Shown here: piece by piece, positions 1-2,411 of the stretch
Numbering within the stretch: position 1 is the first letter of the stretch
Layout of the letters: each line of letters opens with the position of its first letter
Assembly: GCA_031398645.1 (NCBI GenBank)
Contig: JANNNS010000338.1
Span: 1 to 62,719, forward strand
DNA from: Acidobacteriota bacterium
Lineage (GTDB): Bacteria; Acidobacteriota; Blastocatellia; Pyrinomonadales; Pyrinomonadaceae
Direction of reading: 5' to 3'
DNA length: 62,719 bases
The notes under the pieces: model-generated
Seen by the model: only the letters and a program-made list of their open reading frames with translations
Databases searched by the model: none
What the model was told of the DNA's origin: nothing
Position numbers and translations under genes: made by a program

Positions 1-497
1 GCAAAATCCCAGTCGCTTTCGCGATACTGAACGCAGTAGTTCCGAGGTTCGAACGTGCCCTGGATCTCCATATCGTAATCGAAGCCTTCAAACACTTTCC
101 GGAGAATGTCGGGCACCGACGTATTCTGAAATATCCGGCTCTGCGAAACCTGCGTGAGCAGCCAAATGCGCGGTACAAGCGTCGCGCGAAACCCGGTGAA
201 CCAACCATGTCGAACTCCCTGAGTGAAATTCACGCAGATGCCGTGAAAGTAGCGTTCTATGGACTCCCCGCCCATCGGATCTTGAATGGCGACGACCACC
301 ATCGGTTTGCCGAGAAGAGCTTCCGGCTCAATGACAGTCAGTGTCGTGCTGTCCGGGATCTCTTCGTGCAACATATCCAGTTCTATGCGGAATAGTTCGT
401 TCAGCCCTTCCGTACACCTGAGCCGGTTGATAAGGAGATAGTCCTTACCAAGCGGCGTGGTCAGCTGTAGCGTTCGTTGGTCCTGGGTAGTTGCCAT
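1..497 (-). CDS. vgrG: Type VI secretion spike protein VgrG, N-terminal ~165 codons only (gene continues beyond the left edge)
   Basis: Absent from the ORF track because the frame runs off the window. Manual reverse-complement translation from the ATG at 497-495 stays open to position 1: MATTQDQRTLQLTTPLGKDYLLINRLRCTEGLNELFRIELDMLHEE...IERYFHGICVNFTQG...FRATLVPRIWLLTQVSQSRIFQNTSVPDILRKVFEGFDYDMEIQGTFEPRNYCVQYRESDWDFA. The RYFHGI, RA-LVP-WLLT, SRIFQN-SVPDI and R-YCVQYRESD-DF blocks are the hallmark gp27-like N-terminus of T6SS VgrG / Rhs-element Vgr proteins. Confidence 0.85.
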   Translation of the reverse strand, partial: MATTQDQRTLQLTTPLGKDYLLINRLRCTEGLNELFRIELDMLHEEIPDSTTLTVIEPEALLGKPMVVVAIQDPMGGESIERYFHGICVNFTQGVRHGWFTGFRATLVPRIWLLTQVSQSRIFQNTSVPDILRKVFEGFDYDMEIQGTFEPRNYCVQYRESDWDF

Positions 498-671
498 ATG
501 GTCCAGCCTTAGCAATGAAACTTCGGCCCTCACACGTATAAGCGATTTCGTGGAATATCTTTCATGTGAGCGCCAAAAATTTATACTGATCACGTTCCCG
601 AAGCCGAGTTTAGGGTAAATTCGGTCTCTCTACCGTTGATCCGGGAGGTTTTGAAGGGGTTAGGATGTGGA

Positions 672-1658
672 CTATTTTGACGTTAAAACGGGCTGAGGCG
701 GGAGCATGGTTAACGATACCCTCCACTCGCTCATTCTTACGCCTGACTTTAGATGAGCAGGCAGACGCGTGAGCCACGGCTGGGCATTTTCTGAGGCAAA
801 TTGGTCGCCGATTCCCATTACATTCTCGGCATCTCCCTCGGCTCCCCAGTGTCCATAGCAGCCTTTGCCGTTCGAGCCTCCTTTCCACATGGCCGGGATA
901 ACGTCCTGCTCAAACTGCTCGTCGAGCATTATCGAAAGCTGGCAGTGCGGCAGCTCTCGTGATACGCCGATATGCGGAAGGCCGAGCATATGTCCAACTT
1001 CATGAGCCACCGCACTGTAGCTGCCGAGTTCACGGGCGACACCGGCCGGGTCAAAGGCGGACATTGGCTCCTTGAGTACATCGGCAGACGCCATCATTCG
1101 CGAATCCGATCGGAAGTATGCGTTAAAAACGTGCAGGTTAATGACCTCGACAGTCGTATGCGGGCTATCGCTCGCGGACACGACCGAAGGCTGAAATTCA
1201 CATTCAACGTTTGGACGCAGCCTATTTCCGCGGACGTCATAATCGAAAAGCGTAAACGAGGGAGGAGGGATCAGCCAGAATTTCCGATTCCATGCCAACG
1301 CCTGCTGCGTGAACCGCCCGACGTATATCTGCCATTCGTCATGTTTCCAGCTCATCGTCGCGAAGCGTCTCTTGTCGTTGTCGTATCGCTGGTTGTGCGA
1401 ACGGCTTGGGTCGAGGCCCATTTTCGCCTGGATCCACGCCAGTTGCCTGGCCACCGTGTCGACCGTCCAGTGCGGCAGATCCGGCTTGAGGTGAACGCGA
1501 AGCAGGATCTTTAGCCTGTAATTCGTGTTCGTTCCGTAACTCGGCGTGAGATACGAATCGAACGTTGTCTCATATTCATTCTCGGGTGTTCCGAGCACGG
1601 CGGCATGAATGCGGTCGTCTGAGCCCATGTGCGTGTTGCTGTGCGTGATCCTGACCAT
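672..1658 (-). CDS. Metzincin-type zinc metallopeptidase-like protein with no signal peptide
   Basis: 334-aa ORF in the track. I prefer the ATG at 1658 (MVRITHSN...) because GAGGAG lies about 9 nt upstream, and the track's GTG start at 1676 overlaps that SD. It has an extended zinc motif, HEVGHMLGLPH (HExxHxxGxxH). There is no N-terminal hydrophobic segment. Confidence 0.7.
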   Translation of the reverse strand: MVRITHSNTHMGSDDRIHAAVLGTPENEYETTFDSYLTPSYGTNTNYRLKILLRVHLKPDLPHWTVDTVARQLAWIQAKMGLDPSRSHNQRYDNDKRRFATMSWKHDEWQIYVGRFTQQALAWNRKFWLIPPPSFTLFDYDVRGNRLRPNVECEFQPSVVSASDSPHTTVEVINLHVFNAYFRSDSRMMASADVLKEPMSAFDPAGVARELGSYSAVAHEVGHMLGLPHIGVSRELPHCQLSIMLDEQFEQDVIPAMWKGGSNGKGCYGHWGAEGDAENVMGIGDQFASENAQPWLTRLPAHLKSGVRMSEWRVSLTMLPPQPVLTSK

Positions 1659-1907
1659 CGGGGATCTTCTCCTCACCGTCTCATTTCCGTAGCACTGCGA
1701 TCAACGATCTACGAGCTTGTGCTTTCTTCTGGGAGAGGTGAGAACTGGAAAACTTTTCCACATCACTCCATCCGCATTGGACCTTGATCGCTTGCGCGGC
1801 AAATCAGAAGCTGCGGGATCTGCGTCCGTCGCATTCCCAGTAAGCTGCAACTCGTCCATCGTGTTCAACGAGTTCCAGCCTACCGAGTTTTTCCGCTTGA
1901 ACTGTCG

Positions 1908-2411
1908 TTAGCGCTTGTTCAGCGTAGTGTACGCGGGCTCCCAAGATGCCGGCTGCCCGGCCCGCAAAATATTCGAACCCACGAACACACGGCATGCAGC
2001 CGAGGTTGCAGTTCCAGCCGGGGCTATTCCGATTCTGGAAAGAACCGCATTCTGCAGAATCGCGGCAATTCTCACATTCTTCGTTGTAGAGCCGTAGGAC
2101 GGTCCGCCAGTCAAGTTTTCTCGTTGAACAAACTCTAACTCTCGTCGATTGGCTGAATATCGCCAGAACTTGTCAGTGTGATTGCCAAGCCCTATCGTAT
2201 AAGCCTCGTCGCCCCTACTGGTCTGGCTGTTTACTCCAAGAGTCCAGATCCCGCTAAATTGATAGCCTTGGCCGAAAGCGAATATCCATTCGTACATTGC
2301 GGATCCCTTTCCAGTACTGCCCGTCTGTACCTCGGTAAGCTCGACTTGTACCCATCTAGGGTTTGCGCTAGGCATACGTTGAACAACCATCAAATTGCAT
2401 TTCTTAAACAT
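1908..2411 (-). CDS. Hypothetical protein, 167 aa, no signal peptide, no recognisable family
   Basis: 172-aa ORF. The start is moved to the ATG at 2411 (MFKKCNLMVV...), which is preceded by GGAGGA at about 8 nt. I recognised no motifs, and it lacks Hcp-like sequence features. Confidence 0.55.
   Translation of the reverse strand: MFKKCNLMVVQRMPSANPRWVQVELTEVQTGSTGKGSAMYEWIFAFGQGYQFSGIWTLGVNSQTSRGDEAYTIGLGNHTDKFWRYSANRRELEFVQRENLTGGPSYGSTTKNVRIAAILQNAVLSRIGIAPAGTATSAACRVFVGSNILRAGQPASWEPAYTTLNKR

Follow-up and report, generated by a model that had tools for sequence, protein, structure and literature searches.

A leaderless metzincin-like protein encoded beside an auxiliary vgrG module is a candidate type VI secretion cargo in an acidobacterium

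Type VI secretion system (T6SS) metallopeptidase effectors are, to our knowledge, few in number, and are either of the gluzincin type (Tpe/VgrG2b) or represent C-terminal domains of polymorphic toxins. In this study, a 62,719-nucleotide stretch of DNA from an Acidobacteriota bacterium of the family Pyrinomonadaceae (GenBank assembly GCA_031398645.1, contig JANNNS010000338.1; hereafter the window) was analysed for a gene located immediately upstream of a truncated vgrG gene. Judged by its sequence and genomic associations, the encoded 328-aa protein is probably a leaderless, stand-alone, metzincin-type T6SS cargo of a new family. By analogy, its nearest functional counterpart appears to be the Tpe-Tpi family, which includes the C-terminal metallopeptidase domain of VgrG2b with PA0261 in Pseudomonas aeruginosa, and Tpe1-Tpi1 in Acinetobacter baylyi. 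Tpe acts in the periplasm of the target cell, the cognate immunity proteins are exposed to the periplasm (as lipoproteins in Enterobacteriaceae), and the C-terminal domain of VgrG2b is a thermolysin-like gluzincin with E983 as its third ligand, fused to VgrG (PMC6899460). The window protein resembles this family in being a predicted zinc metallopeptidase tied to a VgrG spike, in its proposed periplasmic site of action, and in the adjacent 183-aa lipoprotein, which parallels the Tpe immunity lipoproteins. It differs in possessing a third histidine and a candidate Met-turn, in being encoded by a separate gene 5' of vgrG, and in bearing no detectable sequence relation to Tpe. Since the VgrG2b domain is a gluzincin fused to VgrG, the window protein is not considered a Tpe member; moreover, when the family profile described below was matched against PDB sequences, the VgrG2b domain did not feature in the 60 best matches.

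Zincin domains of polymorphic toxins (Tox-MPTase1-5, HopH1-like and PVC-metallopeptidase) carry the HExxH motif and are delivered by the T6SS, by Photorhabdus virulence cassettes (PVC) or by other routes, and in some cases have no immunity gene next to them if their targets are distant organisms (PMC3482391). In contrast to these domains, which form the C-terminus of Rhs, PAAR or filamentous toxins, the window family is stand-alone, and since Pfam scans returned sub-threshold M10/M12-type hits alone, nothing ties the window protein to known zincin toxin domains. With the metzincin clan (serralysins M10B, matrixins/karilysin M10A, adamalysins/reprolysins M12B and snapalysin M7) it shares the HExxHxxGxxH motif and an invariant methionine ~50 residues downstream, and this clan also provided its best, though weak, sequence and fold matches. 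The N-terminal beta-rich region and three family-invariant cysteines set it apart from the clan. A signal peptide, a propeptide and a C-terminal repeats-in-toxin (RTX) signal for type I secretion are all absent from it, in which it differs from almost every characterised bacterial metzincin. In the classical layout of DUF4123 (Tap-1/TEC) modules, vgrG is followed by the DUF4123 gene, the effector gene and the immunity gene. The present locus resembles such modules in that DUF4123 and PAAR genes directly follow a vgrG gene away from the core cluster, and differs in that the sole enzyme-like gene is located upstream of vgrG and in that a PAAR protein with a ~200-aa coiled-coil tail is encoded after the adaptor. 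A literature search on metzincins and the T6SS returned incidental co-mentions only, none of which linked metzincins to the T6SS as cargo, and no study of acidobacterial T6SS effectors was found.

An earlier note, prepared from the window sequence alone, had described a signal-less 328-aa protein with an HEVGHMLGLPH zinc site encoded 174 nt upstream of vgrG on the same strand, and this description was confirmed (Table 1). The N-terminus of the protein contains no hydrophobic stretch, and its ATG codon is preceded by GGTGAGGAG. An alignment of 14 family sequences revealed that H219, E220, H223, G226, H229, N279-x-M281-G282 and three cysteines are invariant, with the N279-x-M281-G282 segment, which from its sequence is a Met-turn candidate, being located 52 residues past the third histidine; the third histidine ligand and the Met-turn pattern together constitute a metzincin signature. 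Profile and structure searches yielded sub-threshold M10/M12 matches, and neither a Pfam match above threshold nor a significant fold match. Specifically, Reprolysin_4 scored 17.7 bits (gathering cut-off 22) and Peptidase_M10 16.3 bits (cut-off 24), both types of match covering the zinc motif only, and no NCBIfam match was obtained. The AlphaFold2 model (predicted local distance difference test score, pLDDT, of 84; predicted template modelling score, pTM, of 0.85) is confident and combines an N-terminal portion rich in beta structure with an alpha/beta catalytic portion. A Foldseek comparison of this model with the PDB returned nothing significant, serralysins and karilysin being among the weak best matches (E at least 0.18, template modelling score below 0.2), and matches of the family profile to PDB sequences spanned merely ~25 residues around the zinc motif. 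Terminator prediction on the minus strand of the spacer separating the metzincin gene from vgrG identified no terminator-like site. Upstream of the metzincin gene, a short box (Table 1) is retained as TCGTAGATCGCAG in the closest homologous locus (L010), amid otherwise diverged upstream sequence, and the box is possibly a promoter or operator.

The window, whose homologues bear source names that point to soil or sediment Acidobacteria, corresponds to the whole of contig C208 in an assembly of 343 contigs that is 89% complete, and the truncation of vgrG is therefore an assembly break rather than a biological one. The earlier note had recognised a VgrG N-terminus in the frame that leaves the window at position 1, and matches of the 165-aa stub to Pfam Phage_GPD (positions 1-130, E 6.8e-35) and to TIGR03361 TssI/VgrG (E 1.3e-31) agree with this. 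The leftward extension that the note had proposed is supplied by contig C252: a Phage_GPD search of the genome located the remainder of vgrG at the extreme end of this contig (20416-22497, minus strand), where it encodes Phage_GPD positions 135-303, Phage_base_V, Gp5_trimer_C and then a ~200-aa Pro/Lys/Glu-rich tail. This piece opens with MEEEGIYYYFEH, the sequence that usually follows ...YRESDWDF, and the gp27-like Phage_GPD domain, the gp5 OB fold and the gp5 C-terminal beta-helix are thus all present across C208 and C252. The whole locus is uninterrupted on a 577-kb contig of a 97.7%-identical relative (L132), in which VgrG comprises 866 aa, and from which the gap between C208 and C252 was found to be 10 nt. 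The gene order in this relative is sigma factor, anti-sigma factor, CHAT-TPR, orf422, orf401, lipoprotein, orphan gene, metzincin, VgrG, DUF4123 and PAAR.

On C252, the genes after vgrG encode a DUF4123 adaptor of 170 aa (E 3.4e-28) and a PAAR protein of 309 aa (E 6.7e-21), and the module ends at two convergent MacB/FtsX genes. The 'orphan vgrG island' of the earlier note is accordingly to be read as an auxiliary spike module, which comprises four genes (metzincin, vgrG, DUF4123 and PAAR) and which, in this lineage, is located downstream of an extracytoplasmic function (ECF) sigma/anti-sigma/CHAT cassette. Within the locus, alignment with the 97.7%-identical relative fails only in the VgrG C-terminal tail and at the beginning of DUF4123; among near-identical genomes, the tail varies more than any other part of the locus, which fits a role in cargo docking. 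The tail contains two copies of a ~39-aa repeat, EEEYWKKAKENPEGVTAPDGTSYVDTxELYKKMDxEAK (C252:20416-21000; L008 17919-18500, minus strand). The PAAR protein (C252:18884-19813; L008 16387-17316, minus strand) is extended by a coiled coil of ~200 aa that is rich in Ala, Glu and Lys and gives a weak apolipoprotein-like match, and its orthologue in L010 comprises just 101 aa and is followed by separate open reading frames (ORFs) of 131 aa and 87-109 aa.

The genome's T6SS core, which is split between contigs C241 and C121, looks complete in the components surveyed. C241 encodes the TssM C-terminus, TagJ/ImpE, TssA, TssB, TssC, Hcp, TssE, TssF, TssG, ClpV, a second VgrG and PAAR, and TssK is encoded on C121. 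This provides the core genes for which the earlier note had proposed a genome-wide search, and whose absence it had held would refute its proposal; its observation that the window itself holds no other T6SS core gene also held: tblastn searches with TssA, TssB, TssC, TssE, TssF, TssG, the TssM C-terminus, Hcp, PAAR, DUF4123 and TagJ matched nothing on C208 except the vgrG stub. The VgrG encoded at the window side is 54-59% identical to that of the canonical cluster on C241. The latter vgrG is flanked by genes for 220-, 225- and 241-aa proteins that lack a Pfam match and surround a 164-aa PAAR protein (C241:12313-12975 and 15738-17667), and these may be cargo or immunity genes. A second, divergent TssB/TssC-like pair, 28-32% identical to the canonical pair, is encoded at C55:15264-16697; a similar second TssC match was observed in most T6SS-positive genomes of the genus, and a second contractile system may exist.

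To judge from sequence, the 328-aa protein belongs to a family that has not been described before and that comprises at least 566 clusters. An exhaustive profile search identified 779 clusters (50% identity) at E ≤1e-3, of which 566 were found at E ≤1e-10. Family members are nearly all stand-alone proteins of 260-340 aa (~300 aa), and signal peptides are essentially absent: a hydrophobicity scan of ~160 representatives gave two marginal hits, both of which represent an internal beta-strand motif. Three independent representatives (P0012, P0057 and P0075) carry a C-terminal OmpA peptidoglycan-binding domain, and such fusions in proteins without a signal peptide argue for peptidoglycan-proximal action that is reached by a non-Sec route. 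For the genomic contexts, a scan of genome contigs with the full-length alignment was swamped by a generic HExGHxLGL pattern and returned one locus, and a scan of metagenome contigs with an alignment excluding the zinc motif returned 80 loci. In one subfamily, the members of which start with 'MSEVW...', the metzincin gene is followed by one or two genes for conserved, leaderless ~300-aa proteins that have no Pfam match and form two BLAST clusters (L055 1144-2040, L059 2078-3975, L061 1460-3419, L053 936-1847 and L069 2375-2639); these may be subfamily-specific partners.

Several family members are encoded in T6SS loci. In L010, which encodes the closest homologue (63% protein identity), the order CHAT-TPR, metzincin, vgrG, DUF4123 and PAAR is kept, and the upstream genes differ from those of the window. 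The genome G298, which is of the same class and of a different family, has three copies, one of which is embedded in the core cluster, in the order TagJ, TssA, TssB, TssC, Hcp, metzincin, 298-aa gene, TssE, methyltransferase, TssF, TssG and ClpV, and the 298-aa protein encoded beside the metzincin is also leaderless. The order in L129 is TssA, TssB, TssC, Hcp, TssE and metzincin, and that in L064 is VgrG, DUF6484, methyltransferase, a KS-like protein, a Tox-PAAR-like protein, three unknowns and metzincin. The T6SS-linked copies thus represent three subfamilies, 34-42% identical to each other, in three contexts: 5' of vgrG (the window, L132 and L010), in the core by hcp/tssE (G298 and L129) and in a vgrG/Tox-PAAR-like island (L064). 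The G298, L129 and L064 copies are likewise only 34-42% identical to the window protein. A MethyTransf_Reg methyltransferase recurs in a pair of T6SS loci that are not related, being encoded between tssE and tssF of G298 (L049 6331-7956, minus strand) and after vgrG in L064 (2029-3465, plus strand), and may be a lineage-specific T6SS accessory gene.

Four T6SS-linked loci were counted among the 43 others that had flanks of 3 kb or more; since sequence within 5-10 kb of T6SS markers makes up only 1.1-1.6% of the window's own, T6SS-positive genome, a rough Poisson estimate gives P ~0.002-0.006. All nine other carrier genomes were shown to encode TssC, including that of the alphaproteobacterium Sphingomonas rustica, against a baseline of 43/401 (10.7%) genomes in the phylum sample and 45/81 (56%) in the genus, ~1,100 genomes having been sampled altogether. 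In this sample, the metzincin therefore does not group with peptidases from T6SS-less genomes, a grouping that the earlier note had held would refute its proposal. Within the 401-genome phylum sample, the three carriers other than the window's own genome were all T6SS-positive (hypergeometric P ~0.001), in a sample that is small and phylogenetically non-independent, and in which lifestyle or genome size may confound the association.

If the short PAAR tail is set aside, the conserved four-gene block contains no enzyme-like cargo candidate other than the metzincin. If it is indeed cargo, its gene would head the spike module (metzincin, vgrG, DUF4123 and the coiled-coil-tailed PAAR), whose firing apparatus would be the one encoded on C241 and C121. 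The peptidase would be synthesised in the cytoplasm without a Sec signal and loaded onto the VgrG/PAAR tip, possibly via the variable VgrG C-terminal tail or the DUF4123 adaptor. Firing would then deliver it into a neighbouring cell, where it would cleave a cell-envelope target, a site of action suggested by the recurrent OmpA-type peptidoglycan-binding fusions. Secretion, loading route, target compartment, toxicity and immunity are properties of the metzincin that we only infer.

The proposal of the earlier note that the metzincin is a T6SS cargo effector is consistent with a real vgrG, a T6SS core in the same genome, co-occurrence with the T6SS and recurrence in T6SS loci, and is weakened by the location of most copies away from T6SS genes and by the lack of delivery fusions. 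Together with the size and non-independence of the co-occurrence sample, the following observations weigh against a cargo role. Approximately 90% of the informative loci represent unrelated, heterogeneous neighbourhoods, as illustrated by the 24-40%-identical relatives P0004/G082, G014, G180 (two copies), G028, G167, G154, P0006, P0008 and P0012, and the P0010 contigs stop directly past the metzincin gene. A Pfam census of 150 neighbouring ORFs found no family in more than two members and no recurrent partner of a known family. Many polymorphic toxin domains do show PAAR-, Rhs- or VgrG-type fusions, and neither these nor other delivery-domain fusions were seen among the best 150 representatives of the metzincin family. 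DUF4123 adaptors usually precede their client, and the gene that follows the adaptor in this locus encodes PAAR rather than the metzincin. The equivalent spacer in L010 contains a hairpin (GCGTCCGA-N5-TCGGACGC) with a T-rich run between the metzincin gene and vgrG, and co-transcription of the two genes is consequently not assured in all lineages. Delivery in the Hcp lumen was considered given the adjacency of hcp in G298 and L129, and is the less likely route from size, 281-343 aa being large for Hcp-lumen cargo. No immunity gene is conserved across the family loci, and the metzincin of L010 has no adjacent exported protein, which leaves room for a non-bacterial target or an accessory role. 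Finally, MIX or other N-terminal delivery motifs were recognised neither by Pfam nor by eye, although no formal search was performed, and a search for RNA runs returned DNA metagenomes only.

Some of these observations would also fit a metzincin that is unrelated to the T6SS, i.e. a cytoplasmic or otherwise handled peptidase that is an accidental neighbour of vgrG and perhaps belongs to the ECF-sigma/anti-sigma/CHAT regulon or to the exported-protein group formed by orf422, orf401 and the lipoprotein. Both the prevalence of loci without a nearby T6SS gene and the missing delivery-domain fusions are in favour of this explanation, as are the CHAT cassettes beside two metzincin subfamilies (the window, L010, L059 and L048) and the homologues of orf401 that adjoin family members in four loci. 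However, TssC occurs in all nine other carriers against the low phylum baseline, two subfamilies are embedded in T6SS core clusters or vgrG islands, and signal-less OmpA fusions are hard to reconcile with a cytoplasmic enzyme. The orf401 family is, furthermore, far commoner than the metzincin family, and hence does not represent a dedicated partner. We consider this explanation unlikely, though it is the strongest of the alternatives.

The metzincin could alternatively be linked to the T6SS without being a toxin, serving the producer as an accessory enzyme, for example in local peptidoglycan remodelling for assembly or in the processing of spike or cargo. T6SS accessory enzymes that cleave peptidoglycan are known, and such a function would be compatible with the co-occurrence, with the embedding between hcp and tssE, with the OmpA-type fusions and with the lack of a conserved immunity gene. 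Nevertheless, a protein without a signal peptide or membrane anchor could not reach the producer's own periplasm by Sec, and only ~3/42 other T6SS-positive genomes in the phylum sample carry the gene, indicating that it is not needed for assembly. The patchy, multi-copy distribution, with three copies in G298, also resembles accessory cargo more than machinery, which renders an accessory enzyme rather improbable. It is most improbable that the metzincin is cargo of the second, divergent TssB/TssC-like system (C55) instead of the canonical T6SS: the protein is leaderless and a second divergent TssC-like gene (E 1e-56 to 1e-85) is present in all seven order-sample genomes tested, including its own, but G298 has canonical TssC only, with one metzincin copy inside that cluster, and the adjacent vgrG is close to the canonical one on C241 (54-59% identity).

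With respect to the genes upstream of the metzincin, the earlier note had described a 167-aa protein with a strong Shine-Dalgarno sequence, no signal and no recognisable family, which was confirmed (Table 1): no Pfam, NCBIfam or PADLOC match was obtained, and relatives were found in only two clusters among 5.8 billion proteins. A ratio of non-synonymous to synonymous substitution rates (dN/dS) of 0.08 against a 78%-identical homologue (L134) implies that this gene is real and under purifying selection. Its AlphaFold2 model was unusable (pLDDT 36, from a three-sequence alignment). The 183-aa lipoprotein likewise lacks a Pfam, NCBIfam or PADLOC match. Comparison with the 97.7%-identical relative revealed 11 non-synonymous and nine synonymous changes in the lipoprotein gene (dN/dS 0.36), versus ~0.08 for the metzincin and 167-aa genes, all based on small counts. 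The suggestion of the note that either protein is an adaptor or immunity partner found no support, as both are missing from L010 and neither adjoins any other family member: the 167-aa gene was found in none of the other metzincin loci examined, and no homologue of the lipoprotein occurs at any other metzincin locus. By analogy with Tpe immunity lipoproteins, the 183-aa lipoprotein, a candidate solely through its position, would be a more plausible immunity protein than the 167-aa orphan. Lipoproteins or exported proteins are encoded beside the metzincin in the window, L070 and L016; the lipoprotein in the same slot in L070 has no similarity to that of the window and is not homologous to it.

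Table 1. Positions of the features in the window that are discussed in the text
Feature	Position	Strand	Remarks
vgrG, 5' part	3..497	-	First 165 codons (ATG at 497) of a ~862-aa VgrG/TssI spike protein
Spacer between metzincin gene and vgrG, 174 nt	498..671	-	Nearly identical in L132
Leaderless metzincin-like zinc peptidase, 328 aa, candidate T6SS cargo effector	672..1658	-	HEVGHMLGLPH
Short box TCGTTGATCGCAG, 13 nt	1694..1706	-	~36-48 nt upstream of the metzincin start codon
Orphan protein, 167 aa, no signal peptide, predicted all-beta	1908..2411	-	GGAGGAAAG 6-7 nt before ATG (Shine-Dalgarno)
Probable lipoprotein, 183 aa	2487..3038	-	Signal peptide ending ...VGLGC
Exported protein orf401, 401 aa	3054..4259	-	Recurrent neighbour of metzincin genes
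Exported protein orf422, 422 aa	4304..5572	-	First gene past the hairpin that follows the CHAT gene

Three loci contain a homologue of orf401 next to a family member: L059 (59% identity), L070 (39%) and L016 (38%), in the last of which the homologue immediately precedes a metzincin-OmpA fusion on its upstream side. The orf401 family is common in Pyrinomonadaceae/Blastocatellia and comprises at least 221 clusters, and it is for this reason not regarded as a dedicated metzincin partner. A homologue of orf422 (26% identity) is located 1.5 kb downstream of a metzincin gene in G180 (L042). When the five upstream proteins and the G298 partner were scanned with PADLOC, none matched a defence system, and an anti-phage reading was dropped.

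Upstream of the block of exported proteins, the window contains an ECF-sigma/anti-sigma/exported CHAT-TPR protease cassette (5752-10860). Past the CHAT gene, at 5720-5696 on the minus strand, there is a terminator-like hairpin with an 11-bp stem (GGGCGTCCGA-N5-TCGGACGC) and a T-rich run. A nearly identical hairpin past the metzincin gene in L010 (~9060-9095, plus strand) may represent a shared terminator or a repetitive extragenic palindromic (REP)-like element. From the hairpin after the CHAT gene, same-strand genes run to PAAR, with no convincing terminator predicted on the part within the window. CHAT cassettes adjoin metzincins of two subfamilies that are ~36% identical, one represented by the window and L010, and the other by L059 and L048. 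The segments concerned are 4097-9032 in L010, 1-2046 in L059 and 2573-10473 in L048, the latter locus also holding sigma and anti-sigma homologues. In L010 and L059, the neighbours of the CHAT orthologues (63-72% identity) are metzincins of different types, which could be explained by a swap hotspot or by functional or regulatory coupling. The recurrence of CHAT beside two metzincin subfamilies and the run of same-strand genes leave room for a novel, speculative and doubtful reading, in which the cassette would act as a signal-gated switch for a pre-packaged 'loaded spike' operon, in which exported accessory proteins would be encoded together with metzincin, vgrG, DUF4123 and PAAR, and the metzincins would be a new envelope-targeting class of T6SS effectors coupled to a caspase-like protease sensor.

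Should the metzincin not be secreted, the finding would shrink to an uncharacterised peptidase family beside an ordinary vgrG module. If the cargo assignment is correct, a leaderless metzincin family that tracks the T6SS would extend the T6SS arsenal by a new class of enzymes, and the OmpA fusions point to a peptidoglycan-proximal target that would be identifiable biochemically. The family would then also serve as a marker for finding further auxiliary modules, and would provide a handle on T6SS biology in the Acidobacteria, an abundant soil phylum from which no characterised effector is known.

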